Source: Candidatus Krumholzibacteriia bacterium (GTDB lineage Bacteria > Krumholzibacteriota > Krumholzibacteriia > LZORAL124-64-63). Taken from it: a stretch of DNA of 64,000 bases. Each line of letters begins with the position of its first letter. The first letter of the stretch is position 1. Of this stretch, positions 4,529 through 53,876 are shown in pieces. The translations under genes and the position numbers were made by a program. The notes beneath the pieces were generated by a model. It did no database searches. It saw only the letters and a program-made list of their open reading frames with translations, and had not been told where the DNA came from. The DNA lies in contig JANTGJ010000004.1 in NCBI GenBank assembly GCA_024762975.1, forward strand, positions 2,002-66,001, in the 5' to 3' direction.

Positions 4529-4743
4529 GGCAAGCGCCTCCGGAAGGGGGGGAATGGCCGGGTCACAGGGCCGGGCAGCGGGCTGAGTAGAATCTACCAG
4601 AATTCAGGCACGGCCACCACTGGGTCTCCCAGGGTCAATCCACGACGAGGCCACCAGTCGTCATTGGCATCACCGGCGATCTGGACTAGTCTTCACTTCG
4701 CAAACCCGAATCTTTGACCCCGACCCGCTAGGGAGGTCTCCGA

Positions 4744-9702: not shown

Positions 9703-9968
9703 GTGTGCGCCTCACCTGGTGAAGCGCTCCCTGGAATCACCTGCCGGTGGAGTTCCGGCGATCGACCAGGAGAACCCGCTGAATGATATGATCGAGCCAG
9801 TCTCGTCGTCAGTAACATGGCACGCGCCGCGGGCACTGACGGCCCTGGCCGTCCTGAGCGTTGGTGGGCGGATCGCCCTTCTGGCGCAGATAACACAAAG
9901 CGGATACCTTGAGAGCGAGCCGGCATTCCGCCGGCTCGTTTTCGCAGGCAGAAGGACGGAACGGTAGA

Positions 9969-10601
9969 ATGGGCAACTGGATCGAAATCCTGGGCTATGT
10001 GGCGTCGGTGCTGGTCGCGGTGTCGCTGATGATGAAATCACTGGCGCGGCTGCGGTTCCTGAATCTCATCGGCGCGAGCGCTTTCGCGTTGTACGGTCTC
10101 CTGGCCGGCGCGTATCCGGTGTTGGCCGTGAATGGATTCATCGCCATCGTGAACATCGTGTTTCTGGCCAAGATGCAGCCTGGCCGCAGCGAAGCCTTTG
10201 AACTACTGGCCATCGATCGTGCCGACAGTCCCTACCTGCGCCGTTTTCTCGATTTCCACGCTGACGACATCCACCACTTCTTTCCTGATTTCGACCTCGA
10301 TATGATCGATCGACCGCAGATCGCCTTCATTCTGCGGGATATGCTGCCGGTCGGCCTCGTGATTTGCGAAGCGACCGAAGGGGACACACTGAAGGTTCGC
10401 CTGGACTATGTCATCCCGTCTCATCGGGATTTCCGCTGTGCCCAGTATTTCTACCGTGCCTGGTCCGAGGTGATGAGTTGCACGGGCGTGTGCCGATTCG
10501 TCGCTCGCGGAGGCGTTGACAAGCATCGTAAGTACCTGAAACGCATTGGGTTCGAGCCCGACTCCGCGCTGGGCACCGATTGGTTTGCACGGCCTGCCTG
10601 A
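9969..10601 (+). CDS. membrane protein (YgjV-like N-terminal TM region) with C-terminal soluble GNAT-like domain
   Basis: MGNWIEILGYVASVLVAVSLMM... gives three predicted TM helices, then about 140 aa ending in ...HRKYLKRIGFEP. The family assignment is weak. Confidence 0.55.
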   Translation: MGNWIEILGYVASVLVAVSLMMKSLARLRFLNLIGASAFALYGLLAGAYPVLAVNGFIAIVNIVFLAKMQPGRSEAFELLAIDRADSPYLRRFLDFHADDIHHFFPDFDLDMIDRPQIAFILRDMLPVGLVICEATEGDTLKVRLDYVIPSHRDFRCAQYFYRAWSEVMSCTGVCRFVARGGVDKHRKYLKRIGFEPDSALGTDWFARPA

Positions 10602-10743
10602 GCATCGAAAAAACTTCCATTTTATATGTGACTAAGTTCCACCGGTTTTGTCTGTAGGGGTGACGTGGTTCGGGCGATGCTCGCTATTTGCCCGCCAACG
10701 AGACAGAACCAATGTGTAGTGCCATTCCGATGGAGGTAGAAGA

Positions 10744-11883
10744 ATGACCCCTCAGATTCAACCGAAGACTGCGCTTTTCGCGCTGCTGATCGTTGCGACC
10801 GGTGTCCTGGCCGGTTGCAGCGGACAGAACGTAGGCCTGAATGTCGAGGAAGAGATCGAGATGCGTGACCAGCGGATCAGTGAGCTGGAGCAGGCTGCCC
10901 ACGCGCAGCAGGCCGAGCTGGAGCAGAGCCGCCGCGCTGCCGAGTCCGCCGCCGAGCGTGCCCGTCTGGCCGAAATCCAGGCCAACCGCGAAATCGGAAA
11001 TATCGATCCCGAGACCGAACTGCTGCCGATGAACGCCTCGGCCGGGGAGTGCTATGCCCGCGTGCTGATTCCGCCCGTCTACGAGTCGACCAGTGAGCGG
11101 GTCATGGTGAAGGAGGCGTCGTCCAGCATCGAGGTCGTTCCCGCCGAGTACGAGTGGACCGAGGAGAGCGTCCTGGTGAAGGAGGCCGGTGAAAAGCTGG
11201 TCGTGGTCCCGGCGACCCACAAAACGGTCCAGGAGCAGGTCCTGGTCAAGGGCGAGTCGACCCGCATGGTCGAAGTCCCGGCCGTCTACGAGACCGAAAC
11301 CGAGGAGATCCTGGTCACCCCGGCGCGCGAATATTGGAAGAGAGGGCGCGGCCCGGTCGAGAAGGTCGATGGAGCAACCGGCGAAATCATGTGCCTGGTC
11401 AAGGAGCCGGCCGTCTACAAGACCGTTACCAAGCGGGTTCTGAAGTCCGAAGCGACCACCCGCGAGGAGACCATCCCGGCCGAGTACAAGACCATCACCC
11501 GCACGGTCATCGATCAGCCGGCCCATACCCGAACCGAGATCATCCCGGCCGCGTACGAGACCGTGAAGGTTCGCAAGCTGGTCAATGGCCCGCGTGAGAT
11601 TCGCACGCCGATCGAGGCCGAGTACCGGACAGTGACCAAGACCGTCATGTCCGAACCCAGCTACATGGAGTGGCGTCAGATCCTCTGCGAGACCAACATG
11701 ACACACGGTGCGGTGCTGGAGATCCAGAAGGCCCTGAAGTCCCGGAACTACAACCCCGGCGTGCTGGATGGAATCTACGGCAAGGACACGATGGCTGCCG
11801 TGAACAAGTTCCAGGAGGACAACGGTTTGGCTCGCGGTCAGTTGACCTACGAGACGATCGATGCCCTGGGGCTGCAGTTCTAG
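10744..11883 (+). CDS. lipoprotein with coiled-coil, tandem PAxYxT repeats and C-terminal peptidoglycan-binding domain
   Basis: Lipobox VLAGC. Repeated (V/I)PA(E/V)Y(E/K)T units. The C-terminus IQKALKSRNYNPGVLDGIYGKDTMAAVNKFQEDNGL matches PG_binding_1. Confidence 0.8.
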   Translation: MTPQIQPKTALFALLIVATGVLAGCSGQNVGLNVEEEIEMRDQRISELEQAAHAQQAELEQSRRAAESAAERARLAEIQANREIGNIDPETELLPMNASAGECYARVLIPPVYESTSERVMVKEASSSIEVVPAEYEWTEESVLVKEAGEKLVVVPATHKTVQEQVLVKGESTRMVEVPAVYETETEEILVTPAREYWKRGRGPVEKVDGATGEIMCLVKEPAVYKTVTKRVLKSEATTREETIPAEYKTITRTVIDQPAHTRTEIIPAAYETVKVRKLVNGPREIRTPIEAEYRTVTKTVMSEPSYMEWRQILCETNMTHGAVLEIQKALKSRNYNPGVLDGIYGKDTMAAVNKFQEDNGLARGQLTYETIDALGLQF

Positions 11884-18790: not shown

Positions 18791-19486
18791 TTGAGCGCAG
18801 ACAAGCACGAAACGCCGGATTCCCATTCCGATACGGAAGCCTGGCAGGCTCTCCAGCCGGAGAAGCGTGACAAGATCTTTTCCGTCGCGGTGGACGAATT
18901 TGCCAAGGGCTACAGTTCCGCCTCGATGAACAGTCTGGCCAAATCCGCAGGCATCAGCAAAGGCAGTATTTTCAACTACTTCCGTTCGAAGGGCGATCTC
19001 TTCGATCGCATCCTCGAGGTGACCCTGAAGCAGGTAAAAAAATACCTGCGCGGAGTGCAGGAAGAAACCCGCGACCTGGGCTTCGTCGAGCGCCTGGGCG
19101 AGTTGCTGCGCAGCGGTTTTCGCTTCATCGACCGGCATCCCCGGCTAGCCAGCATCTATTTCAATATCCTGGCCGGGGGCGAGGCACCGTATCGTTCGCG
19201 GCAGATGGCCGTAATCACCCGCAGCAGCACCAATTACCTGGAGGATCTGGTAGAAGATGCGCAACGCTCGGGTGAGATTGCACCCAATGTGCGTTCACGC
19301 CGCCTGGCCTTCCTGATCAACGCCATGTTCGAGCGCATCCTGAGCGCCTACTACACCGAACAGTTGGCAGGCGACATGGACCTGTACCGGGCCGATCGCG
19401 AAACCCAGGAAGAGTGGATCGCACTATTCTGCGATCTGGTCCGTGGACAGCTGGGATCGGTGAACCAGGGAGTGAATGATGAGTGA
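18791..19486 (+). CDS. TetR/AcrR family transcriptional regulator
   Basis: The N-terminal HTH region KIFSVAVDEFAKGYSSASMNSLAKSAGISKGSIFNYFRSK is typical of TetR. TTG start follows AAGGAG. Confidence 0.85.
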   Translation: MSADKHETPDSHSDTEAWQALQPEKRDKIFSVAVDEFAKGYSSASMNSLAKSAGISKGSIFNYFRSKGDLFDRILEVTLKQVKKYLRGVQEETRDLGFVERLGELLRSGFRFIDRHPRLASIYFNILAGGEAPYRSRQMAVITRSSTNYLEDLVEDAQRSGEIAPNVRSRRLAFLINAMFERILSAYYTEQLAGDMDLYRADRETQEEWIALFCDLVRGQLGSVNQGVNDE

Positions 19487-20549
19487 TTCGCGTGCGGATC
19501 TGCCCCGTGTGGATGACCGGAGCGACGGCCGCTATTTCGTTCTCGAGGTCGAGCGCGACGCCTTCGTCGACCTGCAGCAATCGGCCCGCGAGCACGACCT
19601 GGAAATCCTCTGGCAGGACACCGGCTACGCCACCTACGGACTGACCACCAGCGATCATATCAATGCCATGGTCTGGGCCGACCGGGAGGGCGTGATTCGT
19701 GCCTGGCGCCAGGATACCGATGCGGTGCTGACCGGCCGCCGTTGGCGTCCGGATGCGACCGTGATCAAACAGGGGCCTTCTACGGTCGGCGGGGCGACCG
19801 TCGCCGTGATTGCCGGACCCTGCTCGGTGGAGAGCCGCGAGCAGATGCGCGAGGTGGCTGCCTGTGTGCGCGAAAGCGGCGGCGGCTGGTTGCGCGGGGG
19901 CGCTTTCAAGCCTCGCACCAGCCCCTACCGATTCCAGGGCCTGGGCGCCGCGGGATTGAAGTTTCTGAAGGAGGCTGGTGACGAGTACGGACTCCCCGTG
20001 GTCACCGAGGTCATGGACGCGGCCGATATCGAAATCGTGGCCGAGCACAGCGACATGCTGCAGGTGGGCTCACGCAATGGGCAGAATTTCTCGCTGCTCA
20101 AGGCGCTGGGTTCGTGCGGAAAGCCGGTCCTGCTGAAGCGGGGCTTCGGCTGTTTTACGGCCGAACTGCTGCATGCGGCGGAGTACCTGATGAACTACGG
20201 CAATGCCGAGGTGCTCGTCTGTGAGCGCGGCATCCGCAGCTACGAGCATTCGTCGCGTTTCACTTTCGACATCAACGCGATCCCGGTGCTGAAACAGGCC
20301 ACGCACCTGCCGGTAGTGGCCGATACGGCGCACGGCACGGGCGATGCCGCCCTGGTGGGCCCGATCGCCAAGGCGTCGATCGCCGCCGGCTGCGATGCCG
20401 TGATGTTGGAAATCCACCCCGATCCGGCCTTTTCCTACAGCGATGCCGACCAGGCGCTTTCGCTGGAGGGGTTCTCGACGTTGATGCGCGAAATGGCGAC
20501 AGTCGCCGAAGCGGTGGGCCGTCGTTTTGCCGGGGTCGAGCATGCTTGA
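19476..20549 (+). CDS. aroF: 3-deoxy-7-phosphoheptulonate (DAHP) synthase, type I-beta, with about 95-aa N-terminal regulatory-type extension
   Basis: GPCSVESREQ...GAFKPRTSPYRFQGLG...KRG...HG matches KDO8PS-like DAHPS. The start overlaps the tetR stop. Confidence 0.85.
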   Translation: MMSDSRADLPRVDDRSDGRYFVLEVERDAFVDLQQSAREHDLEILWQDTGYATYGLTTSDHINAMVWADREGVIRAWRQDTDAVLTGRRWRPDATVIKQGPSTVGGATVAVIAGPCSVESREQMREVAACVRESGGGWLRGGAFKPRTSPYRFQGLGAAGLKFLKEAGDEYGLPVVTEVMDAADIEIVAEHSDMLQVGSRNGQNFSLLKALGSCGKPVLLKRGFGCFTAELLHAAEYLMNYGNAEVLVCERGIRSYEHSSRFTFDINAIPVLKQATHLPVVADTAHGTGDAALVGPIAKASIAAGCDAVMLEIHPDPAFSYSDADQALSLEGFSTLMREMATVAEAVGRRFAGVEHA

Positions 20550-21888
20550 GCGCTGTACGGCAAACAATCGCTCCGAAGCGCTGACGATTCTGCGCCAGTG
20601 GCTGCCCCACGACGCGACCGAGGGCTTCCGGCGCCTGGAAATCGCACTACCCGCCTGCGAACCGCTGGGTCTGGATCTGTACCCTCGCGTGCAGTGGATT
20701 TCGCGGGACAACGCTCTTGCGATCGAGGCTGCCGGTTGCGCCCTGCAGGCCGAGTTGCCGACCTGGGGTCGCATGGGCGGTCTGGAGCAGGAACTGCGCG
20801 GAAGGGTAGACCCGGAATCGGCCGCCTCGTTGCGCTGGTTCCTGTGGGGTCGCTTCGATGCCACGACCGATCCGGAAGCCGAATGGCAGAGCTATGGCAC
20901 CCGTCGCCTGTTGCTGCCGAGCCTGGAAATGCGACGCGAGAGAGACCGCTGTCTGTTGGCCTGCAACTGCAATACGCAGGGCCTGCCCGCGCTGCGGGCT
21001 GCCCTGTCCGCCCCGACCTTGCCGGGTCCTGCCGAGGCGTTCGGTTGCCGGGATGCCGGATCGACGCCGAACCGTGGGGATTGGGATGCACAGGTGGCGC
21101 GGGTTCAGCACCTGCTCGAGGAGGGGACGCCGTTGCAGAAGGTGGTCCTGGCCCGTCGTGCCTCGTGGACGGTGGAGTGGTTCGACCCCGCCCGATTGCT
21201 GGCCCGTGCGGCCGAGTTGCAGCCGGCTTCGTATCGATTGTTGATCCAGCCCGATCCGAAAACAGCGTTTCTGGCGCTCAGTCCGGAGCGTTTGTACCGG
21301 CGCGATGGCGAGCAGATCGAGAGCGAAGCGTTGGCCGGCACTCGACCGCGCGGAGGCGACGAATCGGCCGATGCCGCACTGGGGAAGGAGCTGCTGGAAT
21401 CGGAAAAAGATCGACGCGAACAGCAACTGGTACTGGATCAGATCCTCGATGCGCTGCAGCCGCTGACGACGACATTGGATGCGGACAGCAAGCCGCATCT
21501 GCGCCGCTTGCGCGAAGTGCAGCATCTGTGCAACCGGGTGGAAGGCATATTGCGCACGGGTGTCGGCGACGGTGATCTGCTGGCGGCCCTGCATCCGACG
21601 CCCGCGGTGGCCGGGCAACCGCCGCGCGAGGCGCGAGAGACGATCGCCGCCCTCGAGCCCTTCGACCGGGGCCTGTACGCCGGCCCGGTCGGCTGCTGTT
21701 CGGCGGAGCAGAGCGAGGTCGCCGTGGCGATCCGGTCGGCGTTGTGGCACGATGGCCGGCTCCATCTGTATGCGGGCGCCGGCCTGCTGCCCGCCTCCGA
21801 CGCCGAGGCGGAATGGAACGAGACACGTGACAAGATGGCCCTGCTGGGCGATTTGTTGCGGCACCGTTCCGGAAAGGCCGTCTCATGA
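20542..21888 (+). CDS. menF: isochorismate synthase
   Basis: Chorismate-binding C-terminal blocks (LHPTPAVAG, GLYAGPVG, AGAGLLPASDAEAEWNETRDK). The ATG at 20542 overlaps the aroF stop. A TTG at 20527 is also possible. Confidence 0.85.
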   Translation: MLERCTANNRSEALTILRQWLPHDATEGFRRLEIALPACEPLGLDLYPRVQWISRDNALAIEAAGCALQAELPTWGRMGGLEQELRGRVDPESAASLRWFLWGRFDATTDPEAEWQSYGTRRLLLPSLEMRRERDRCLLACNCNTQGLPALRAALSAPTLPGPAEAFGCRDAGSTPNRGDWDAQVARVQHLLEEGTPLQKVVLARRASWTVEWFDPARLLARAAELQPASYRLLIQPDPKTAFLALSPERLYRRDGEQIESEALAGTRPRGGDESADAALGKELLESEKDRREQQLVLDQILDALQPLTTTLDADSKPHLRRLREVQHLCNRVEGILRTGVGDGDLLAALHPTPAVAGQPPREARETIAALEPFDRGLYAGPVGCCSAEQSEVAVAIRSALWHDGRLHLYAGAGLLPASDAEAEWNETRDKMALLGDLLRHRSGKAVS

Positions 21889-23603
21889 GTGGATTCTCGA
21901 GATTCAATCCGCACACCGCCGCAAATATCAATGCCCTGTGGTGCGGAATGCTGGTCGAGGAACTCGGTCGACTGGGTGTTCGCGATGTGGTGGTGTCGCC
22001 GGGGTCGCGCAACACGCCCCTGGTCGCCGCCCTGGTTTCGGCAGGCACGATGCGGGTGACGGCGGCCATCGACGAACGCGGCGCCGGTTTCCATGCCCTG
22101 GGATGCGCCCAGGCCGGACGCGCGGCCGCCGTGGTCACCACCTCGGGTACGGCCGTGATGAACCTGCTTCCGGCAGTGACGGAGGCCAGGCAGTCGGGCG
22201 TCCCGCTGCTGGTGCTCTCGGCCGACCGCCCCGTCGAGGCGCGCGACTGCGGCTCGAACCAGACCATTGACGCTCTCGGCCCCCTGGCGGCACTGGTGAA
22301 ATGGCAGCACGATCTGCCGGCGCCCGATGATCGACTGCCCGCGCGACTGGCGTTGACGGCACTGGATGAGTCCGTTCGAGTCGCAACCGGCGGTTTCCCC
22401 GGACCGGTGCAGTTGAATTGCGCCTTTCGCAAGCCGCTCGAACCCACCGCCGTCGAGTGGGATGCTGCCTGTCTGGCCGGCCTCGAGGCGTGGTTTGCCG
22501 GTAGCGAGCCCTTCGTTCGCAATGTTCCGGTGGCGTCGCGACCCGACCTGCGAGAAGTACTCGCCGAGATTTCGCGCACCGAACGCGGTCTGCTCGTGGT
22601 GGGCAACACGCGCGAAGGAGATCGGATCCGGCCCCTGGCCGAAAGCCTCGGCTGGCCGGTGATCGCCGACCCGGGGTCGGGACTGCGTACCCGCGCCGGC
22701 GAGCTACCCCTGATCCGGTACGCCCAGTGGATGAATGACTTGCCGCAGCCGGATCTCCTATTGCAACTGGGTTCGCGGCTGGTCTCCGGCAAGCTGGAGC
22801 AGTGGCTGGAGTCCTTGCCCGCTCGCCGCATCCTGATCGATCCGGCCGAAGAGCGCCGTAACCCGGGCCACGTGGAACTGACGCGGGTCACAGCTGGTAC
22901 GGGGGAATCGGCTGAAGCCCTGGCGGAGGCATGCCTGGCCCGAATGCCCGGCCCCTGGACGCAAGCCTGGTTGGACGCCGATTCCCGGATCGGCGCAGTG
23001 ATCGACAACACGATCGCCTCTGCGAACGAGCTGACCGAGGCCGAGATCGCACGCGATGTCGCAGCCGCCGATCAGCGCCTCTTCCTGGGCAACAGCTTGC
23101 CGGTTCGCCACGTCGGCGGGTTTGCCGCAGGCTCTTCGTCCCATGGCGGAATCGGCAAGAACCGCGGCGCCAGCGGCATTGACGGGGTACTGGCAACGGC
23201 CTGTGGCCTGGCCTGCGGTACCGGCGAGCCCATCGTCCTGTTGATCGGTGACCTTTCGTTGTTGCACGATCTGAACAGCCTGTTGTTGGCACGCCGTTCG
23301 CGGCAAAAGGTGCTCATCGTGGCGATCCACAACGGTGGTGGCGGTATTTTCGACCACTTGCCCGTGGCTCAGTACCCGGAGGTGAAGGCGCCCCTGTGCG
23401 ATGGCACGCACGACGTGGCGCTCGCGCCCCTGGCCGCAGGTTTCGGACTGCCGACCTGGGTCTGCCGCACGCGCGACGAGTGGCAATCGGCATGGATCGA
23501 GGCACAGGCCTGCGGTGAGTCCTGCCTGATCGAGGCCGTCGTGCCGAGAGATGGACACGGCCGGTGGGTGGCCCGACTCAGGGGGCGCCTGGCCGATGGC
23601 TGA
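21885..23603 (+). CDS. menD: 2-succinyl-5-enolpyruvyl-6-hydroxy-3-cyclohexene-1-carboxylate (SEPHCHC) synthase
   Basis: ThDP-enzyme blocks (VVSPGSRNTPL, IGDLSLLHDLNSL). ATGA overlap with menF. Confidence 0.9.
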   Translation: MSGFSRFNPHTAANINALWCGMLVEELGRLGVRDVVVSPGSRNTPLVAALVSAGTMRVTAAIDERGAGFHALGCAQAGRAAAVVTTSGTAVMNLLPAVTEARQSGVPLLVLSADRPVEARDCGSNQTIDALGPLAALVKWQHDLPAPDDRLPARLALTALDESVRVATGGFPGPVQLNCAFRKPLEPTAVEWDAACLAGLEAWFAGSEPFVRNVPVASRPDLREVLAEISRTERGLLVVGNTREGDRIRPLAESLGWPVIADPGSGLRTRAGELPLIRYAQWMNDLPQPDLLLQLGSRLVSGKLEQWLESLPARRILIDPAEERRNPGHVELTRVTAGTGESAEALAEACLARMPGPWTQAWLDADSRIGAVIDNTIASANELTEAEIARDVAAADQRLFLGNSLPVRHVGGFAAGSSSHGGIGKNRGASGIDGVLATACGLACGTGEPIVLLIGDLSLLHDLNSLLLARRSRQKVLIVAIHNGGGGIFDHLPVAQYPEVKAPLCDGTHDVALAPLAAGFGLPTWVCRTRDEWQSAWIEAQACGESCLIEAVVPRDGHGRWVARLRGRLADG

Positions 23604-24314
23604 TCGACTGATCCTGCTGCACGGCTGGCTCGGCGATCCGGGCGATTTCGAGGGGCTGCAGCGGCATCTGCCTGAAATGACCGGGCTGTCCCTGCCCGGC
23701 CACGGGAAGCGGGTTCTGGACGCTCGGGCCACGACGGAATCGGTGCTGGAAGGGCTGGCCGAAGATATCGAACGGGTAGCTGACACGGGGTCCTATGTGC
23801 TGGGCGGCTACAGCATGGGGGGCCGTGCGGCGGCCTGGCTGACGGCCACGGGACGGCTCTCGCCGCAGGCCCTGGTCCTGATCGCGGCGTCGCCCGGCCT
23901 GCCGACGCGGTCCCGGCGCGACGAGCGGCGAGCGGTGGATGAGGTGCGCGCTCAGCAATTGCGCGACCAGGAGTTCACGAAATTCCTGGACCGCTGGTAC
24001 CGCCTGCCGCTTTTCGCGGATCTGCGCCACGGCGAGGATTTCGAGGCGACTCTCCAACGGCGCCTCCAGCGCGATCCCCAGCAATGCGCCCGCGCCCTGG
24101 AATTGCTCAGTGTTGGGAATCAGCCGGATCTGACAGAGCACGATTTTGAACGGGAAGTGTTGTACATCGCCGGTTTGCAGGATCGGAAATATGCCGATCT
24201 GGCGACCGGATGGAAAAATGTCCGCGCCGAATTGATCCCGGGTGCGGGTCATGCGGTCCACCTGCAACGGCCCGACGAGGTCGCTGCACGGATCCGAGAA
24301 ATGGAGAGCCTGAA

Positions 24315-24318
<4 letters not shown>
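23596..24318 (+). CDS. menH: SHCHC synthase (alpha/beta hydrolase)
   Basis: [10 protein letters not shown] and the nucleophile elbow GYSMGG, plus position within the men operon. Overlaps the menD stop. Confidence 0.75.
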
Positions 24319-25150
<832 letters not shown>

Positions 25151-25154
<4 letters not shown>

Positions 25155-26071
25155 TGCGCGGCGGCGTATCAATCTGGCTGGAAGCGGCGCGGCCCAAGAC
25201 GTTGTGGGCCGCCGTTGCTCCGGTCACCATGGCGGCGGCGATGGCCTGGAAGGCCGGCGTCTTTCACGGCCCGACCCTCGCCGTCATCATCATCGCGGCG
25301 TTGCTGATCCAGATCGGCACCAATCTGGCCAACGACTACTTCGATTTCCGCAAGGGCACCGATACCGAGGAGCGCATCGGGCCGACGCGGATCACGCAGG
25401 CCGGTCTGGCCAGCCCGGGTGCGGTGAAGATCGCCTTCCTCATCGCCTTCGGACTGGCCATTCTGCTGGGAGTCGTTCTGCTGCTGCGCGGCGGTTGGCC
25501 GATCGCGGTCATCGGACTGACCTCGGTTCTGCTGGGCGTACTCTACACGGGCGGGCCCTGGCCGCTGGCCTACATTGGCGCCGGCGACATCTTTGCTTTC
25601 CTGTATTTCGGCCCGGTGGCTGCGGCCGGTACCTGGTACCTGATGGCGCACACCTGGACCTGGGAATCGGTGCTGGCCGGTTGCGCTGCGGGCTTTTTCT
25701 CCACGGCATTGCTGACGGTGAACAACTATCGTGACATCGTGTCGGATGATCGCGGGGGCAAACGCACGCTGGCTGTTCGCTTCGGTCCGTGTTTCGCACG
25801 CACCGAATTCTTCGCCATGCTGACCGGCGCAGTCGTCATTCCCTTCCTCCTGGCGACATTCTTCGGTGCGAGCTGGGCCCTGTTGATTGCGGTGGTTCCG
25901 GTGGTCGTGCGCTGGCCGGGATTCGTCCGCCGTCTGGATGTCGAGCCCAGCGAGGAGCGCACTTTCGGAGAGGCGATGAACCGGATGCTGGCCGATGTCG
26001 GCCGCCTCGAGATCCTGTACGCGTTGCTGTTCTCGATCGCCTGGATCGCCGGACCGGGGGGCGGTTCGTGA
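25151..26071 (+). CDS. menA: 1,4-dihydroxy-2-naphthoate polyprenyltransferase (UbiA family)
   Basis: [14 protein letters not shown] motif, about 8 TM helices, [24 protein letters not shown] overlaps the menB stop. Confidence 0.9.
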
Positions 26072-27066
26072 GCTGGTCGTGGGCGCAGTACCGGTTGCCG
26101 CTGGCAATGCCGACCACCGCCGGAGGCGGTCTGGAGCGTCGCGGTTTGATCCTCTCCTGGGACGGTGCGTGGGGCGAGGCGGCGCCACTGCCCGGATTGC
26201 ATGACGAGGCGCTGGAGAATCTGCCGGCTCGGTTGGAGAAGCTGGATCTGCCGGAGTGTCTGCCGGCGGGCACTCCCGGCGAGATCCTGGCACGGTTGAT
26301 TCGCACGCCGGGCTTCGGAGTGCTGCCGCCCAGTCTGCGCTTCGGCCTCGAGAGTGCCGCGTTGCAGTACGCCGCCGACTGTGGGGACCTGCCGCTCTCG
26401 CGATTCCTGTGGCCGGGGAAACCGTTGGAAGCACCCCGGTCGGTCGGACTCTTCTCGGGCGATGCCGACGAAGCGGCGAGCCTGCTGGACGCCGGTGCAT
26501 TCTCCTCCTACTCGGGCGTGAAATTGAAGGTCGGTCGTTCGACTCTCGACGAAGACGTGCGGGTGGCCGGGATCTTCCGTGACCGCTGGCCCGCTGCCGA
26601 GATCCGACTCGACGCGAACCGTTCATTCGATCTGTCGACGATGCGGGAGCTGTGCACTCGCACCGCCGATCTGGATATCGCCTTCGTCGAAGAGCCCTTT
26701 GCCGACCGGCGCGATCTGGCTGCCTGGTTGCAATCGGACGCAGGATTGCCGGTCGCGCTGGACGAAACCGTCGTTGCCGCCCTGCGCGGTGGCGATCTAC
26801 CCCCGTCCGGCCCGCGCGTGGCCGCGTGGGTCGTCAAACCCTCCTGCGTCGGAGTCTTTGCTACACTTCAGCTCATGGCCGATGTGCAACCTACGCGGGT
26901 CATCGTCAGTTCCTCTTTCGAATCCAGCGTCGGAATGGGCATGCTGCGAGCGCTGTCGTCAGGCAGTTCGGCGGCACCCGGACTGGGGACGGATCGCTGG
27001 TTCCCGCATGAGTTGACCGAGGACCACCTGGGTGCGTGGCGAGCCCTTCCGGGAGGACGGGCATGA
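26068..27066 (+). CDS. menC: o-succinylbenzoate synthase (enolase superfamily)
   Basis: VKLKVG, RLDANRSF, FVEEP and ALDE metal/catalytic blocks. The GTG start forms a GTGA overlap with the menA stop. Confidence 0.8.
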   Translation: MSWSWAQYRLPLAMPTTAGGGLERRGLILSWDGAWGEAAPLPGLHDEALENLPARLEKLDLPECLPAGTPGEILARLIRTPGFGVLPPSLRFGLESAALQYAADCGDLPLSRFLWPGKPLEAPRSVGLFSGDADEAASLLDAGAFSSYSGVKLKVGRSTLDEDVRVAGIFRDRWPAAEIRLDANRSFDLSTMRELCTRTADLDIAFVEEPFADRRDLAAWLQSDAGLPVALDETVVAALRGGDLPPSGPRVAAWVVKPSCVGVFATLQLMADVQPTRVIVSSSFESSVGMGMLRALSSGSSAAPGLGTDRWFPHELTEDHLGAWRALPGGRA

Positions 27067-28259
27067 TCCGGCAACTTCTGCTCCAGAACGCCGACGCGCC
27101 CTTCTTGGTCGGTCCGGCCGGAACGATCTCCCGCGCCGAAGCAGCCGAACGTATTGCCGTTCGCTCCGCCGGCATCCACAAAGTGGGCATCGTTCCCCTC
27201 GAGATCGAGCCGTCGGCCGACGCGGTCCTCGAATTGCTCGCGGTACTGGCCGGCGGCCGCGTCGCGGCTCCATTGAACCTGCGCGAACCGGCGCCGATTC
27301 GCGAAGGTCTGCACAGCCGACTCGAAGCGACCCCCGTGCCGTCCGGCTCCGCGCTGTTGGTTCGTACTTCGGGTACGACCACAGAAGGCAAGTGGGTCTG
27401 GCTTGATCTGGAATCGCTCTTGCACGGCGCAACCTGCGCCGCGCGCGCACTCGATTTCGGGGAGGGGGACCGCTGGCTCCTGAACCTGCCCTTGTACCAT
27501 GTCGGCGGCCTCGGTCCGATCTGGCGGGCGTTGGTTGGTGGCGGTGCCCTGGCGTTGCCCTCTACGTCTTTCTCGCATGCATCGGTCGTTGCAGCGCAAC
27601 TGCAACGATTGCTCGAGAACGGGATCCCCAGGCCCTGGAAGGCCTGTCGCCGGGCCCTGCTCGGCGGTGGCCCGGTGCCCGAGGGACTGTTGGAGAGTGC
27701 CGCCGCGCGTGGCCTCCAGGTTACGTCCAGCTATGGCATGACCGAAAGCGGCTCCTTGTGCGTGGCCGACGGCCGTGCGATCGGCAGTTGCGAATTGCGC
27801 AGCCACGAGGGCGAGATTCAACTGCGTGGTCCGGCGCTCTTTCGTGGCTACCTCGACCTGGTGACCGGAAATCTTGCTCGGCCCGATGCCGGCGATGGGT
27901 GGTTTCCGACCGGCGACCTGGGTCGTATCGACGAGGCCGTCCTGACGGTCCGCGGTCGGCGCGACAACCAGTTCGTTTCCGGCGGCGAGAATATCCAACC
28001 CGAAGAAATCGAGAGCGCGCTGTTGGCGATCGAAGGCATCGACGAAGCGGTCGTCGTGCCGGTTCCCGATCAGCGGTTCGGACTTCGCCCAGTGGCCTTC
28101 ATCCGCCCCTACAGGGAGGGCCTGGGTGATCAGCTGCGGGTTGCATTACCGGGCTTCCGGGTTCCGACCCGGTTTCTGCCGCTGCCCGTCCCCAACGACG
28201 GTGCCCTCAAGCCGCGTCGCGCCGAACTGGCCCGACTTGCTCTACGGACAGATCTCTGA
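27063..28259 (+). CDS. menE: o-succinylbenzoate--CoA ligase (AMP-binding family)
   Basis: TSGTT..GK, WFPTGDLG and SGGENIQPEEIE blocks. ATGA overlap with menC. Confidence 0.8.
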   Translation: MIRQLLLQNADAPFLVGPAGTISRAEAAERIAVRSAGIHKVGIVPLEIEPSADAVLELLAVLAGGRVAAPLNLREPAPIREGLHSRLEATPVPSGSALLVRTSGTTTEGKWVWLDLESLLHGATCAARALDFGEGDRWLLNLPLYHVGGLGPIWRALVGGGALALPSTSFSHASVVAAQLQRLLENGIPRPWKACRRALLGGGPVPEGLLESAAARGLQVTSSYGMTESGSLCVADGRAIGSCELRSHEGEIQLRGPALFRGYLDLVTGNLARPDAGDGWFPTGDLGRIDEAVLTVRGRRDNQFVSGGENIQPEEIESALLAIEGIDEAVVVPVPDQRFGLRPVAFIRPYREGLGDQLRVALPGFRVPTRFLPLPVPNDGALKPRRAELARLALRTDL

Positions 28260-47807: not shown

Positions 47808-50800
47808 ATGAAACGCAGCACCGCCCTGATTCTGCTCCTGTTCACGCTCTCGGGTGTAAGTGGCCTGATCTATGAGCTCGCCTGGATTCGTCTGTTGAGT
47901 CATCTGCTGGGGGGGACCTCGTTTGCGATCAGTACCGTGCTGGCGGCGTTCATGGGTGGACTGGCGCTCGGCAGCCGCTACTTCGGAGATCGCGCGGATC
48001 GCTGGACGGGATTGCTGCGCACCTATGCCGGTCTGGAGTTCGGTATCGCGGCGCTGGGTGCGCTCGTTTACGGTTTGATCCTGCTGGCGCCTCCGCTCTA
48101 CGCTTCGGTGGCTTCGTCTTTGCCCGCGCCCGCCGTGGCGGTTCTGCGGGTTCTGATCGCTTTGCTGTTGCTGCTGCCCCCGACCTTCCTGATGGGCGGT
48201 ACCTTGCCGATCCTGGCGCGGTTCGTCGTACGGCAGGCCGATCGACTCGGGCGCGGATTGGGCCTGCTGTATGCGGTGAACACCTTTGGAGCGGTCGGCG
48301 GCTGTTTCCTGACGGGCTTCGTTCTGATTCCCGGGATCGGGCTGCAGGGTAGCGTGGCTATCGCTGTGGCTCTCAATATCCTGATCGGTGTTGCGGTGCT
48401 GATCGTGGCGCGTACCGCGCCCGCACCGTCCCCTGCGCCGGAGACCATCGAGGCATCGACCGAGGAATCAGCGCCCGCGAACCAACCAACCTCGACGGAA
48501 GCAACCCTCCGTTTTGGACTGCTGGGCACCATTTTCGCGCTCAGCGGATTCGCCTCGCTCGGCTACGAATTGTACTGGACACGGGGCCTGCAACCGTTCC
48601 TGGGCAACTCGACCTATGCTTTTTCGGCGATGCTCACGACGTTCCTGCTGGGCCTGGCGGCCGGCGGTTGGGTGGGGGGGCGTCTGGCCGACCGCAGCGC
48701 GCGACCGGCGGCACTGCTGGGCTGGGTGCAGATCGGCGCCGGAGCCTCGGCACTGGCCACCGTATTGCTGATCTGGGGCTGGTTGCCGGTCCTGGGCGAG
48801 TCGAACACGCTCAGCCATATCGGTCTGAGCTGGACGAGTTACCTGATGCGGCGCTTTGTCCTGGCGTTCGGCGTGATGGCTGTGCCCACGCTGTTGATCG
48901 GCATGACCTTTCCCCTCGTCAGCCGGATCGGCATTGTCGGATTGGATCGGCTGGGCGGGGGAGTGGGGCGCCTGTATTTCATGAACACGCTGGGCTCGAT
49001 CGCCGGTTCCCTGGTTGCGGGATTCGTGCTGCTGCCGCTGCTCTCGGCACAGGGAGCCCTGGTGGGAACGGCCTTGGTGAACGTGGCTCTGGGCTTGACC
49101 CTGCATGCCCTGATCCGGCGTCCCGGATCGAAGCAGTTACCGGCCGCGGTCGCTGTCGCCGTGGTGTTGGCGGTCTCGGCTCCGCTGGCCGCCGGCTTCG
49201 GTCGCGCGCCGCTTTCCGATACCCAGACCGAGTCCGATCGGGTGCTGTTCGATCGCGAGGACCATGCCGGCCACACGCGGGTCTACCGCAAACCGTCCGG
49301 TGACCTCCACATGAGCGTCGACGGATTCCATATCGGCGGAACCGAGCAGAGCATCATCGGCAAGGAGAAAATCCTGGCGCACCTGCCGCTGGCGCTGCGG
49401 CCCGAGGCGAAGCATACGCTCTCGGTGGGGCTGGGCAGCGGGATCACGCTTGGATCGCTTGCGACCTATTCGCAGCTCGAGATGATCGAATGTGTCGAGA
49501 TCGTGCCCGGAGTGGTCCAGGGGGCCGAGTTCTTCACGGCTGCGAATCGCAACGTGCTGCGGGATCCGCGTGTGAAGATCCACATCGGCGACGGCGTGCA
49601 GTTCCTGCTGACCAGCGGCGATCGCTACGACATCATCAGTTCGGATTCGAAATTGAATCCCGAGTACGCCGGCAATGGGCCATTGCTGGCCCTGGAGTAT
49701 TACGAGCTGTGCCGCGATCGCCTGACGGAGGACGGCGTGATGGTGCAATGGCTGGCCAGTCACCTGCCGATTTCCGAGATGGAAGTCATCGTACGCGGCT
49801 TCGCTACGGCCTTCGACCACGTGGCCGTCTACTGGCTGGCGCCGTCCAACCTGGTGCTCGCCGGCAGTCGGCAGCCGCTGGTGATGGATCTCGATGCGAT
49901 CCGCCGCTATGGCGAGGCGCCGGGCTCGGGTGCGGATCTGCGATCACTGCATCTCGAGGACCCGTATGTGATGGCGTCGCTGTACCTGGCCGACCGCGAC
50001 CGTCTGCTCGAAGTACTGGGTGAGGGCGCATTGAACACCTGGGCGCGTCCGCGAATCGAATTCACGATGCTCAAGGAATTCCGCCGTAAGAGCCCGGTCT
50101 ATCACGGCGCCGACAATCTGCGCTGGATGAAGCGGTTGCGCGATCCTTCGTCGTTAGCGGTACGTGGAGACTACGATCCGGCCGTACTGGCCAAATACCG
50201 TGCTTCTTCCGCAGCCGTGCTGGATGGATACGCGGCCGCGGGCGGGGTCGAACGGGTCGGCCCGGGGCTGGCCATCTGGCAGGCGGCGGCCCAGGCCAAT
50301 CCGGAGGACGGGTTGCTGGCGTCGCTGATCGAGATCGAGATGGGTGCTGCCCGGTCGCGCGAAGAAGCGGTCGTCGGGGTCCCGATGGACGACCCGGCCG
50401 CATTGACCTCGGCAGCAGTTACCAGGATGGACCAGAAGCGTTTCACCGAGGCACTGCGGTTGCTGGACCAGGCCCTGAAGCTGGATGATGGCAGCCGTGC
50501 AATCCGCTTCAATCGCCTGCTGGCCCTGCGCGGCTTGCAGCGCGGCGAGGATCTCGCACGCGAACTGGCCGAGTTTCTCAAACGCTACCCCAAAGATCCG
50601 CGCGGCTACGATATGAGTGGCCGCATCGCGGCGGACGCACGGAAGCTGGACGAAGCCGAGGCTGATTTCCGGGCCGCCGTCGCACGGGAACCGGAGAGTC
50701 CGCAGTATCAGAGCAATCTGGCGGCAACGCTGGTTCAGCTCCAAAAATTCGATGAAGCGGCGGCGTCGTTCGCGGCGGTCGCCGGCATTCAACCCGACTT

Positions 50801-50972
50801 CCCGCGGGCGGCCTACCACGCCGCGGCCTGCTACAGCCTGGCGGGTATGACGCGAGAGTCAGCCCAGTGGATGCAGTTCTGCCTCGATCGGGGATTGATG
50901 AAGCGATCGGACTTCGAGAGCCACGAATGGTTCGAGAATCTACGGGCCTCGGCCGATTGGCCGGATCGCTAG
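47808..50972 (+). CDS. fused polytopic membrane / spermidine synthase-like methyltransferase-fold / TPR protein
   Basis: N-terminus LFTLSGVSGLIYELAWIRLLSHLLGGTSFAISTVLAAFMGGLALGS with about 12 TM helices. Central spermidine-synthase-like block (SVGLGSGITLGS...IGDGVQFL...YDIISSD). C-terminal TPRs. Confidence 0.8.
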   Translation: MKRSTALILLLFTLSGVSGLIYELAWIRLLSHLLGGTSFAISTVLAAFMGGLALGSRYFGDRADRWTGLLRTYAGLEFGIAALGALVYGLILLAPPLYASVASSLPAPAVAVLRVLIALLLLLPPTFLMGGTLPILARFVVRQADRLGRGLGLLYAVNTFGAVGGCFLTGFVLIPGIGLQGSVAIAVALNILIGVAVLIVARTAPAPSPAPETIEASTEESAPANQPTSTEATLRFGLLGTIFALSGFASLGYELYWTRGLQPFLGNSTYAFSAMLTTFLLGLAAGGWVGGRLADRSARPAALLGWVQIGAGASALATVLLIWGWLPVLGESNTLSHIGLSWTSYLMRRFVLAFGVMAVPTLLIGMTFPLVSRIGIVGLDRLGGGVGRLYFMNTLGSIAGSLVAGFVLLPLLSAQGALVGTALVNVALGLTLHALIRRPGSKQLPAAVAVAVVLAVSAPLAAGFGRAPLSDTQTESDRVLFDREDHAGHTRVYRKPSGDLHMSVDGFHIGGTEQSIIGKEKILAHLPLALRPEAKHTLSVGLGSGITLGSLATYSQLEMIECVEIVPGVVQGAEFFTAANRNVLRDPRVKIHIGDGVQFLLTSGDRYDIISSDSKLNPEYAGNGPLLALEYYELCRDRLTEDGVMVQWLASHLPISEMEVIVRGFATAFDHVAVYWLAPSNLVLAGSRQPLVMDLDAIRRYGEAPGSGADLRSLHLEDPYVMASLYLADRDRLLEVLGEGALNTWARPRIEFTMLKEFRRKSPVYHGADNLRWMKRLRDPSSLAVRGDYDPAVLAKYRASSAAVLDGYAAAGGVERVGPGLAIWQAAAQANPEDGLLASLIEIEMGAARSREEAVVGVPMDDPAALTSAAVTRMDQKRFTEALRLLDQALKLDDGSRAIRFNRLLALRGLQRGEDLARELAEFLKRYPKDPRGYDMSGRIAADARKLDEAEADFRAAVAREPESPQYQSNLAATLVQLQKFDEAAASFAAVAGIQPDFPRAAYHAAACYSLAGMTRESAQWMQFCLDRGLMKRSDFESHEWFENLRASADWPDR

Positions 50973-51062
50973 GCACTCGGCCGCACGTGGGCAGACCGGG
51001 TGCAGAGTGTCGAAATGACCCGACGATCAGCTCGGCCCCGGCGCCGTTCAGGAGATCCTTCC

Positions 51063-51404
51063 ATGCACGAGATGTCGATCGTAACCAGCATCCTGGATAT
51101 TGCCAGTGAGCGAGCCCGGCAAGCGAACGCGAAGGTCATCCAGGAGATTGAAGTCGAGGTGGGCGCTCTGGCCGGGATCGAGATCCCGGCGCTGGAGTTC
51201 TGTTTTCAGGCGGCTCGCGCCCACTCCATCGGTGAACAGGCGGAGCTGGTGATCCGTGAGGTACCCGGCCTGGGGCACTGTCCCGCCTGTGGCCAGGAAT
51301 CGACCATGGATTTCTATGCGGCGGTTTGTCCGGTATGCCACGATTCGGTGCTGGAGGTCCGGCAGGGGCGCGAAATGCGGGTTCTGTCCATTCGTGTCGA
51401 TTGA
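51063..51404 (+). CDS. hypA: HypA-like zinc-ribbon nickel metallochaperone (no other hyp/hydrogenase genes in window)
   Basis: Canonical N-terminus MHEMSI and CPACG...CPVCH zinc site, 113 aa. AGGAGA SD upstream of the ATG at 51063. Confidence 0.75.
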   Translation: MHEMSIVTSILDIASERARQANAKVIQEIEVEVGALAGIEIPALEFCFQAARAHSIGEQAELVIREVPGLGHCPACGQESTMDFYAAVCPVCHDSVLEVRQGREMRVLSIRVD

Positions 51405-51488
51405 GGCCGCTCCTGTGTGCGGGCAATTTCAATCTCGTTTATCATGTCGCCATTCTCGATATTCCCGAACCCCCACGAGGAGGACGTC

Positions 51489-52103
51489 ATGTCTGAAATG
51501 ATCAATGGGGTCCGCATCGGCCACCCGGTGCCGGATTTCCAGCTGAATTGCTACGATCCCCAGGCGCACGATTTCAAACCGGTCACATTGGCCGAGCAGA
51601 AGGACGCAGGCAAGTGGACGATCCTGTTCTTCTACCCCGCCGATTTCACCTTCGTATGAGCGACGGAGTTCGCTGCTCTGGCAGAGCAGCAGGATCGCTT
51701 CGAGAAGATGGGCGCAGCGCTCATCACCGTCTCCACCGACACCGAATTTACCCACCTGGCGTGGAAACGCGACGAGAAGGAATTGGCAGATGTCCAGTAC
51801 CTGATGGGCGCTGATCCGACCGGTACCGTCTCCAAACTCTTCGGCGTATACGATCCGGGTTCGGGCCTGGCGCTGCGGGGAACGTTCATCATCGCGCCGG
51901 ACGGCACGCTGTTCAATTCCGAGGTGAACTTCTACAACATGGGCCGCAACATCGACGAGTTGATGCGCAAGTTCAAGGCGAATCTCTACCTGGCCAGGAA
52001 GGCTGACGAGGGCTGCCCGTCGAAGTGGAAGGACGAGGGCGACAAGACGCTGCGTCCGGGGCCCGAAATGGTGGGCAAGGTGCACGAGGCGCTGAACGAC
52101 TAG
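51489..52103 (+). CDS. typical 2-Cys peroxiredoxin (AhpC/Prx1 type) with in-frame TGA (51657-51659) at the peroxidatic position: predicted selenocysteine-containing Prx
   Basis: Track ORFs 51417..51659 and 51708..52103 share a frame. Read-through gives FFYPADFTFV-U-ATEFAAL...TVSTDTEFTHLAW...LRGTFIIAPDG...EGCPSKW. The family motif is DFTFVCPTE and the resolving-Cys motif is present. GGAGGA SD lies 4 nt before the ATG at 51489. Confidence 0.85.
51672..51690 (+). promoter_or_regulatory. candidate bacterial SECIS hairpin
   Basis: GCUGCUC (51672-51678) pairs perfectly with GAGCAGC (51684-51690) around loop UGGCA. The stem begins 12 nt after the UGA. A possible 4-bp lower stem pairs GCGA (51660-51663) with UCGC (51695-51698). 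Confidence 0.55.
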
Positions 52104-52152
52104 CGCCCGTATCCACCTCACGCGACAAGCTCCACGAACCCGAATAAAAAAC

Positions 52153-52179
52153 AGCGACCCCGGAAAATCCGGGGTCGCT
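52153..52179 (-). terminator. rho-independent terminator of the small peptide gene (shared with the convergent Prx gene)
   Basis: AGCGACCCCGG (52153-52163) pairs with CCGGGGTCGCT (52169-52179). On the minus strand the hairpin is followed by GTTTTTTATT. Confidence 0.7.
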
Positions 52180-52206
52180 CTTCAAGCGCTGCAGTAGGTA
52201 ACTCGA

Positions 52207-52395
52207 CTAGTCGCCGAGCGGAAAATCCAACAGGCTCCAGAAACCGCCACGTCGGCCTCCGTGACCGCCATGACCACCTCGGCCACCGCGCCCGCCGCGT
52301 CGACCGCCCCGTCCCCCATAGCAGCCGAACACACCCAACTCGACCTTCTCGGTCGAGATTTCGGGTTTCTGATATTCCTTCTTGGTGCTGTCCAT
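52207..52395 (-). CDS. 62-aa Gly/Arg/His-rich small protein or peptide precursor, unknown family
   Basis: MDSTKKEYQKPEISTEKVELGVFGCYGGRGGRRGGRGGRGGHGGHGGRRGGFWSLLDFPLGD. GGAGGA SD lies 8 nt upstream of the ATG, with an intrinsic terminator downstream. Third-position GC bias is consistent with coding. Confidence 0.6.
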   Translation of the reverse strand: MDSTKKEYQKPEISTEKVELGVFGCYGGRGGRRGGRGGRGGHGGHGGRRGGFWSLLDFPLGD

Positions 52396-52469
52396 ATCGA
52401 ATGTCCTCCACGATGATCAGTGTTTTTGAGTCCAGATTTCAATAATAGCACCTTACATCATTATTTGCA

Positions 52470-52507
52470 CGAAATAATTCGGTTAAAATCAGTCCTGAAT
52501 TATTTCG
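52470..52507. promoter_or_regulatory. 11-bp perfect inverted repeat in AT-rich divergent promoter region (candidate operator)
   Basis: CGAAATAATTC (52470-52480) and GAATTATTTCG (52497-52507) are separated by 16 nt. They lie between the small peptide gene and the bacilliredoxin gene. Confidence 0.4.
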
Positions 52508-52690
52508 AATCTGTGACAACTTGTTAAATTGCAGAATGGTGGGGTGGAATCGCGTGTTCGACGCGGGGTTTGTCGTGAAATTGCGGAATAAAACTTGGCA
52601 AAAACGGTATTCTTTTCTAGTCATACCTGCAAATAGAAGTCCGTTCCGCGAAACGGATCCGAAAGAAATTCAGTCCAAGGAGAAGTCGAG

Positions 52691-53110
52691 ATGCCCTATC
52701 CCGAGCAGATGGTCGCCCCGATGCGCGCCGAGCTCACCGAGGTCGGCGTTCAGGAATTGCGTACGCCCGACGAGGTGGACCGCTATTTCGCCCGCAAGGA
52801 AGGTACCTCGTTGCTGTTGGTCAACAGCGTGTGCGGTTGCGCCGCTGGAAGCGCTCGTCCGGCACTCAAGGCGGCGTTGGAGCACGACAGTCGTCCCGAT
52901 CACGCAGCGACGGTATTTGCCGGCCAGGACCTGGAAGCGACCGAGCGCGCCCGTGAGATGATCGGCCCGGTGCCTCCGAGCAGCCCTTCGGTGGCTCTTT
53001 TCCGCGACGGTGAACTCGTCCACTTCCTGCCGCGTCACCTGATCGAGGGGCAGTCGGCCGAGGTGATCGCCCGTGAGTTGACTGCCGCATTCGACGAGTT
53101 CTGCAACTGA
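52691..53110 (+). CDS. BrxA/BrxB-family bacilliredoxin (YphP/YqiW, DUF1094)
   Basis: Near full-length similarity to B. subtilis YphP: VNSVCGCAAG active site, TVFAGQD, PSSPS.AL, VHF.PRH.IEG. Confidence 0.9.
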   Translation: MPYPEQMVAPMRAELTEVGVQELRTPDEVDRYFARKEGTSLLLVNSVCGCAAGSARPALKAALEHDSRPDHAATVFAGQDLEATERAREMIGPVPPSSPSVALFRDGELVHFLPRHLIEGQSAEVIARELTAAFDEFCN

Positions 53111-53147: not shown

Positions 53148-53876
53148 ATGGGAACCTTTCATGATACCAGCGACCCGTTGCACGGAATCACCGTGGCGGT
53201 GACGATGAATGACAGCGTCGTCGTGGGGCGTTGCCATGAGCGGGACAGCGAAAAGGTCCTGCTGCTGGACGTTGACGAACACGCGGACGACGCGGGCGAG
53301 ATGCCACGCAGCGAGTACCTGGCGCGCGCTGCCCGTTTCGGCGTGTGGGCGAAGCACGAGCGCCTGTCCATCCCAGCCGGCGAGGTTCTGGAAATTCAAC
53401 CTCTCAGCAGCTACTACACGCGCCCGGGCGAGGCCGCCCAGCCCGAGATCGCTGGGGTCTCCCAATCGAAACCGGGAACCGAGGACTCTGCCCAGGCGAA
53501 GTCCGACGCGGTGACGGTCGAGATCGCCACGGAGGTGCCGGGCACCGTCCAGTCGGCCGTGAACCTGACGGCGGCCGCCGCGCAGGAAGTCCGTCGACTG
53601 ATCGCGGCGGGCGAGAACGAAGGCCCGGGACTGCGACTGGGTGTGGCCGGTGGTGGCTGCTCGGGACTGACCTACAAACTCGAATTTTCCGAGCCGCGCG
53701 ACAACGACGTCGTGGTGGCCCAGGACGGATTCGACGTATACCTCGATCCGAAGAGCTCGATCTATCTGCGGGATGTCACTCTGGACTATCAGGGCGGCCT
53801 GGGCGGCAAGGGGTTCCAGTTCAACAATCCCAATGCGACCAATACCTGCGGCTGCGGCGAGAGCTTCGCGGTCTGA
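53148..53876 (+). CDS. IscA/HesB/ErpA-type iron-sulfur cluster carrier with about 125-aa N-terminal extension
   Basis: C-terminal 105 aa: LRLGVAGGGCSGLTYKLEF...DPKSSIYL...NPNATNTCGCGESFAV. The N-terminal part has no recognised family. Confidence 0.85.
   Translation: MGTFHDTSDPLHGITVAVTMNDSVVVGRCHERDSEKVLLLDVDEHADDAGEMPRSEYLARAARFGVWAKHERLSIPAGEVLEIQPLSSYYTRPGEAAQPEIAGVSQSKPGTEDSAQAKSDAVTVEIATEVPGTVQSAVNLTAAAAQEVRRLIAAGENEGPGLRLGVAGGGCSGLTYKLEFSEPRDNDVVVAQDGFDVYLDPKSSIYLRDVTLDYQGGLGGKGFQFNNPNATNTCGCGESFAV

Follow-up and report, generated by a model that had tools for sequence, protein, structure and literature searches.

Bacterial selenocysteine (Sec)-containing peroxiredoxins (Sec-Prx) of the TxxU family have been verified experimentally with PrxU of Eubacterium (Peptoclostridium) acidaminophilum (Sohling et al. 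2001). In the surveys of Zhang and Gladyshev, the family combines an AhpC/TSA fold with Sec in place of the peroxidatic Cys in a PxxxTxxU motif and has a bacterial SECIS element (bSECIS) directly downstream within the coding sequence. It has widespread Cys homologues and has undergone repeated Cys/Sec interconversions. Sec-Prx was the fifth largest selenoprotein family in the genomes of 2006, with 12 genes and five Cys-to-Sec events, and ranked second in abundance in the Sargasso Sea, with 43 genes, which were assigned to COG1225. The first-pass annotation of the locus described here had called such enzymes known but rare. PrxU bears out the former, whereas the latter does not hold, as Sec-Prx is among the commonest bacterial selenoprotein families.

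The gene at 51489–52103 on the plus strand of the window (the whole 64,000-nucleotide stretch of DNA that was analysed) shows no difference in kind from the TxxU family, for which the surveys lump several peroxiredoxin subtypes. It opens with an ATG at 51489, 4 nt downstream of a Shine-Dalgarno sequence that can be read directly from the DNA (GAGGAGGA, 51477–51484), passes through an in-frame TGA at 51657–51659 and ends at a TAG at 52101–52103. Translation gives a complete coding sequence of 204 codons followed by the TAG stop, with the TGA as codon 57 (GKWTILFFYPADFTFV-TGA-ATEFAALAEQQ; immediate context YPADFTFV-TGA-ATEF). The ORF listing contains two same-frame pieces instead, 51417–51659 and 51708–52103, exactly the split from which the first-pass annotation had proposed that read-through of the TGA yields one 204-residue peroxiredoxin. 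The proposal stands up well: with Cys put at the stop, residues 10–141 match the Pfam AhpC-TSA family (PF00578) at 2.6e-34, which places the protein in the AhpC/TSA domain family.

The best matches among solved structures in the PDB are AhpC chains (1.6e-42). When aligned with them, the TGA falls on the peroxidatic Cys (Cp) of FTFVCPTE, giving the arrangement P50-A-D-F-T54-F-V-U57, and it also aligns with the TGC/TGT codon of 12 Cys forms of the gene. Downstream, Cys176 (TGC, 52014–52016) in the EGCPSKW motif occupies an invariant alignment column and falls on the resolving Cys (Cr) of EVCPAKW in AhpC, as in a typical 2-Cys enzyme whose Cp is Sec. Thus, both the placement of the stop at the peroxidatic position and the intact resolving-Cys motif had been recognized correctly at first pass. 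The likeness to Salmonella AhpC (1yep/4ma9; TIGR03137) includes the exact alignment of Cp and Cr and extends to the same C-terminal ...CP.KW...LVGK tail, whereas the two proteins differ by Sec for Cys at Cp and by the motif UATE in place of CPTE.

PrxU likewise carries Sec at the peroxidatic position, but the window protein aligns to positions 33–228 of the 233-position profile, without the N-terminal approximately 30, and it belongs to a different clade with different host phyla. It scores 178 bits with the PrxU equivalog model (NCBIfam NF040737), which has a cut-off of 270, and 180.5 bits with the AhpC equivalog model (NCBIfam TIGR03137), which has a cut-off of 272. The window protein is not a PrxU equivalog but belongs to a clade apart, of the AhpC/Prx1 type and with the motif UATE. 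It also differs from the Sargasso set in being of the AhpC/Prx1 type with a resolving Cys, whereas COG1225 is the BCP/PrxQ type. On the whole of the evidence given here and below, 51489–52103 very probably encodes a single AhpC/Prx1-subfamily typical 2-Cys peroxiredoxin with selenocysteine, U57, as its peroxidatic residue.

The TGA is conserved. When a single genome of each GTDB species was scanned, 80 loci of 67–86% identity emerged, from at least eight phyla, comprising Krumholzibacteriota, Acidobacteriota (Thermoanaerobaculia, Sulfomarinibacteraceae and Holophagae), Planctomycetota, Nitrospirota, Deltaproteobacteria, Rokubacteria, NC10 and Eisenbacteria, and the Cp codon is TGA in 80/80 of these species representatives. 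Although a second scan, of metagenomes, was seeded with a Cys form (P0002), 68 of its 80 contigs carry TGA and 12 carry TGC or TGT. Within this clade, the samples taken here contain far more Sec forms than Cys forms (about 150 against 12), and TGA is invariant among the unique relatives (82/82 genomic, 62/62 metagenomic). The residues flanking the TGA are invariant on both sides while their third positions vary, indicating purifying selection on one continuous frame. In a protein search, full-length Cys-type homologues reach only ~72% identity. The closest protein matches, at 90% identity, are 144-residue fragments, and the corresponding contig (L001) shares with the window both the TGA and the split into two gene calls.

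Twelve nucleotides past the TGA begins the perfect 7-bp hairpin that had been noted at first pass. The stem is formed by GCTGCTC (51672–51678) and GAGCAGC (51684–51690) and the apical loop is UGGCA (51679–51683), in which the U and A can pair to close a GGC triloop and lengthen the stem to 8 bp. The published bSECIS model allows a loop of 3–9 nt, a stem of 4–16 bp and a UGA-to-loop distance of 16–37 nt, with a minimum free energy (MFE) of at most -7.5 kcal/mol and a G in the first two loop positions within the pattern N1-G-[G|U]-N-N2. The window hairpin agrees on every count, with a stem of 7–8 bp, the loop U-G-G-C-A, 19 nt between UGA and loop, and an MFE of -11.7 kcal/mol. Its local fold energy is unexceptional relative to shuffled sequences (z = 0.19; single-sequence folding of a 63% GC sequence), and the significance of the hairpin thus comes from comparison with relatives and not from thermodynamics. 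No Rfam SECIS model matched, either in the whole window at gathering thresholds or in 51600–51760 under permissive ones, where only chance matches appeared. Bacterial SECIS elements are family-specific, so that such an absence is expected.

In the relatives, the hairpin is frozen at the nucleotide level. Over the codons GCT GCT CTG GCA GAG CAG (+15 to +32), third-position entropy is zero in 144 unique TGA forms (82 genomic and 62 metagenomic), compared with 0.7–1.9 bits elsewhere in the gene. The same codons in ten unique Cys forms, which encode an AALAEQ-type peptide, have 1.2–1.85 bits and do not keep the pairing. Accordingly different fold energies are found for +3 to +47, with a mean MFE of -17.1 kcal/mol in TGA forms versus -8.2 kcal/mol in Cys forms. 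Within a 134-sequence alignment, 99% of cells pair, as against 16–60% when the 3' partner is slid. Two of the stem pairs change on both sides, and none of 500 shuffles matches the observed values. Pair 17/31 goes from U-A to C-G or G-U, accepting a residue change of Q to R or L, and pair 19/29 goes from C-G to A-U, accepting changes of A to D plus E to G. The loop varies in two ways only, by G to U at the [G|U] slot (giving Ser for Ala) and by A to G at N2, where a U-G pair is kept. By contrast with the hairpin, synonymous sites vary in the 12-nt spacer (51660–51671), indicating that the spacer is constrained in length only.

These sequence comparisons show that the hairpin is under selection as an RNA element, and it fits the bacterial SECIS type, with the published model, the frozen synonymous sites and the covariation all pointing the same way. 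Like the SECIS of E. coli fdhF, it is a coding-region stem-loop a fixed short distance past the UGA with a G and then a G or U in a small apical loop, but its primary sequence is unrelated and it is embedded in a conserved AALAEQ peptide. Because of this embedding, every synonymous site is pinned by structure. The AALAEQ peptide and the bSECIS rules together would leave exactly one nucleotide solution, which would explain the invariance across phyla with no need for recent horizontal transfer.

The Cys forms are interspersed among the Sec forms, with nearest neighbours of 78–89% identity that are often TGA forms. As judged from these sequences, such a distribution indicates repeated Cys/Sec conversions within the clade. 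Two TGC forms (L095 and L096; Cp codon at about 1669) still carry the hairpin sequence GCTGCTCTGGCAGAGCGG and appear to have reverted recently from Sec to Cys, leaving the SECIS as a fossil.

The alternative that survives best, though it is itself improbable, is that the UGA is decoded as something other than Sec, either as Trp, Cys or Gly by near-cognate decoding or through code 4 or 25. Gene callers did place Trp at Cp in three full-length entries (P0004, P0014 and P0058), but the DNA behind P0014 and P0058 (L166, 358–975; L167, 335–955) reads TGA, and the Trp is a caller artefact on contigs of about 1–1.6 kb, presumably through use of code 4. The absence of visible Sec machinery from the 64-kb window would also fit such decoding. 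Pfam and NCBIfam searches of about 50 genes and tblastn with E. coli SelA, SelB and SelD found no selA, selB or selD in the window, and a tRNA scan of it found no tRNA, so no tRNA-Sec (selC). tRNA-Sec was also not found by tRNA scan in 60 related loci, and a scan of the window for other TGA-interrupted coding regions returned none that is credible. The Sec-decoding trait of this genome is thus one that we infer and do not observe directly.

Several observations nevertheless argue for Sec and against other decodings. Ordinary window genes end normally at TGA, at their family C-termini, and the TGA stop of the bacilliredoxin-like gene described below falls one residue past the end of the Pfam profile; TGA is therefore not reassigned in this organism. 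Neither Trp nor Gly could replace the catalytic chalcogen, and a conserved hairpin whose loop follows the bSECIS pattern is a specific feature of SelB-dependent recoding. A Desulfobacterales MAG (L078) gives direct evidence of Sec decoding in at least one carrier of the gene. Its SelD homologue (4624–5571, minus strand; 41% identity to E. coli SelD, 6.7e-61), found among about 700 kb of relatives' flanks, lies about 1.5 kb from its Sec-Prx and contains an in-frame TGA of its own where the catalytic Cys17 would stand (KTCG-TGA-AAKIDP). L078 has two selenoprotein genes close together. An apparent SelB match in another relative (L061) proved to be LepA.

Less probable still is a pseudogene, in which the TGC or TGT codon of a Cys-type peroxiredoxin would have become TGA by nonsense mutation. 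One base change suffices, and a few relatives look decayed, one with CGA and a scrambled N-terminus (L002) and another with an extra in-frame TAG (L085). However, the TGA is invariant in about 150 relatives from at least eight phyla, the protein is conserved on both sides of it, and 148 of the 151 TGA forms are otherwise intact, having 145–159 open codons to the next stop. Upstream, all 151 have at least 50 open codons. Moreover, the SECIS-type hairpin is under selection in TGA forms only. The pseudogene had been considered the less economical reading at first pass, and conservation of the same TGA across relatives free of further disabling mutations effectively refutes it.

The exceptional copies deserve mention in their own right. 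In L085, the additional TAG lies within the hairpin (GAG TAG; 1669–1716), and this copy is a pseudogene or a sequencing error. The Arg variant P0061 (L002, 6001–6597) has CGA at the Cp codon and a non-homologous N-terminus but largely retains the hairpin, and this copy is probably in decay. A further gene on that contig encodes a protein with T4_deiodinase and multihaem cytochrome domains (9745–11169); deiodinase-like proteins are a known selenoprotein family of bacteria. In a Holophagae MAG (L009, 3172–4890), 573 codons follow the Sec codon instead of about 147, which suggests that the normal stop was lost, or a fusion or read-through into downstream sequence.

A sequencing or assembly error at the Cp codon, with TGC or TGT as the true codon, is most improbable. 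Nothing specific speaks for it beyond the generic possibility that applies to any single base, while a Logan re-assembly from reads (L163; SRA run SRR19843167) is 99.925% identical to window positions 48372–52355, with 3 mismatches over 3984 nt, and carries the TGA, as do all close relatives. A check of the TGA in raw reads had been called for at first pass, and this near-identical independent assembly, built from reads, came out in favour, as did every other proposed sequence-level test that could be run. Thus, the conservation of the TGA together with L163 excludes both the pseudogene and the sequencing error for practical purposes. A genuine split gene, whose 56- and 131-residue products would be made separately and then assemble, is no more credible: an ATG is present at 51708, but it has no Shine-Dalgarno sequence and relatives do not conserve it as a start (65/82 have ATG, the others CTC, TTG or ATC), protein-level conservation is strong over the 16 codons that separate the TGA from 51708, and the catalytic residue would be missing. 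The first-pass statement that the second fragment has neither a Shine-Dalgarno sequence nor a start of its own is correct for the former and incorrect for the latter.

The preferred reading remains a Sec-containing peroxiredoxin. Insertion of Sec in this organism, which we infer from the established bacterial pathway, would involve recoding of the UGA at 51657–51659 during translation. The mRNA hairpin at 51672–51690, within the coding sequence, would bind SelB-GTP-Sec-tRNA(Sec) and so bring Sec to the A site of the ribosome, for which release factor 2 would compete. By analogy with peroxiredoxin enzymology, the selenolate of U57 would then attack peroxide to form a selenenic acid, which Cys176 of the partner subunit would resolve to a selenenylsulfide, and a thioredoxin-type reductant would restore the enzyme.

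The neighbouring genes vary among carriers. Upstream lies hypA (51063–51404, plus strand; Pfam HypA 1.2e-30, TIGR00100), which is also a gene call in L163. The gap between hypA and the peroxiredoxin gene is 85 nt, a promoter scan found no plus-strand promoter-like site in it, and the two genes are possibly co-transcribed. This nickel metallochaperone gene is solitary: the window genes scanned include no further hyp gene and no hydrogenase gene. Downstream is a gene for a BrxA/BrxB-family bacilliredoxin-like thiol-disulfide protein (52691–53110, plus strand; PF06491 3.4e-61, TIGR04191 7.8e-61). As a dedicated reductant of the peroxiredoxin it is unsupported and stays a candidate only, since the adjacency is not conserved: the gene has no matches in 160 related loci, and the hypA, bacilliredoxin and IscA genes of the window are not adjacent to Sec-Prx in relatives. 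The Pfam and NCBIfam scans of window genes showed no AhpF-like partner. All-against-all clustering of ORFs in the flanks revealed no universal partner, although it was swamped by spurious high-GC ORFs.

Just downstream of the peroxiredoxin gene, a minus-strand ORF (52207–52395) encodes a 62-residue peptide, MDSTKKEYQKPEISTEKVELGVFGCYGGRGGRRGGRGGRGGHGGHGGRRGGFWSLLDFPLGD, whose core is a Gly/Arg/His-rich repeat. The ORF has a GGAGGA Shine-Dalgarno sequence, promoter-like sites at 52527–52499 and 52442–52413, and a strong minus-strand terminator (52179–52153) made of a 12-bp hairpin and then a T-tract, and it adjoins an unusually AT-rich intergenic region at about 52400–52690. The peptide has no Pfam or NCBIfam match and could be a RiPP-like or antimicrobial-type precursor. 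Further downstream, an IscA/HesB-type ORF (53148–53876) matches its family over residues 138–242 only. The 137-residue N-terminal extension has no family match, so that the true start is probably near 53547. With the selenoprotein HesB-like models the ORF stays under the cut-offs, and its frame contains no TGA. Elsewhere in the window, a run of genes at 19476–28259 resembles a menaquinone biosynthesis cluster. Its members include a DAHP-synthase-family protein, a chorismate-binding enzyme (MenF-like), a TPP enzyme (MenD-like), an enoyl-CoA hydratase family member (MenB-like), a UbiA prenyltransferase (MenA-like) and an AMP-binding enzyme (MenE-like).

The gene belongs to a long-known selenoprotein family, and its value lies mainly in the correction of annotation and in a neat example of a SECIS. 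Current understanding of selenoproteins is unchanged, and the finding will not surprise specialists. Gene callers split the gene into 56 residues plus 131 or 144 residues (P0074, L001, L163), and fragments of the clade stand in the protein collection as P0074, P0110 and P0111. Besides the split and the Trp entries, the Arg variant P0061 is a third wrong form. Because callers either split the gene or translate TGA as Trp, public protein databases misrepresent a widespread antioxidant enzyme. The clade is also an unusually clean case of a SECIS overlapping a conserved peptide, with all synonymous sites fixed.

A more ambitious reading, which we hold only tentatively and think less likely than its opposite, is that these genes form a distinct and not specifically described AhpC/Prx1-type clade (FTFV-U-ATE), in which Sec is the default across at least eight phyla and the SECIS is nucleotide-invariant. 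Under the same doubtful reading, the phyla would be mostly those of uncultured sediment bacteria and anaerobes, including Krumholzibacteriota and Sulfomarinibacteraceae, and the SECIS would be fully set by the overlap of AALAEQ with the bSECIS rules. Our literature search returned no paper on the use of Sec by Sulfomarinibacter, Krumholzibacteriota or Thermoanaerobaculia. On the other hand, the genome-scan loci include relatives from Geobacteraceae, Geothermobacteraceae and Thermodesulfovibrio, which suggests, without proving it, that the already catalogued Geobacter-type Sec-Prx belong to the clade. If the clade is indeed distinct and Sec its default, the gene would mark the Sec trait in MAGs cleanly, and the clade would be a natural system for studying the recognition of one identical SECIS by SelB from many phyla. 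For the organism itself, the gene implies that it decodes Sec and that part of its peroxide defence would be selenium-dependent.
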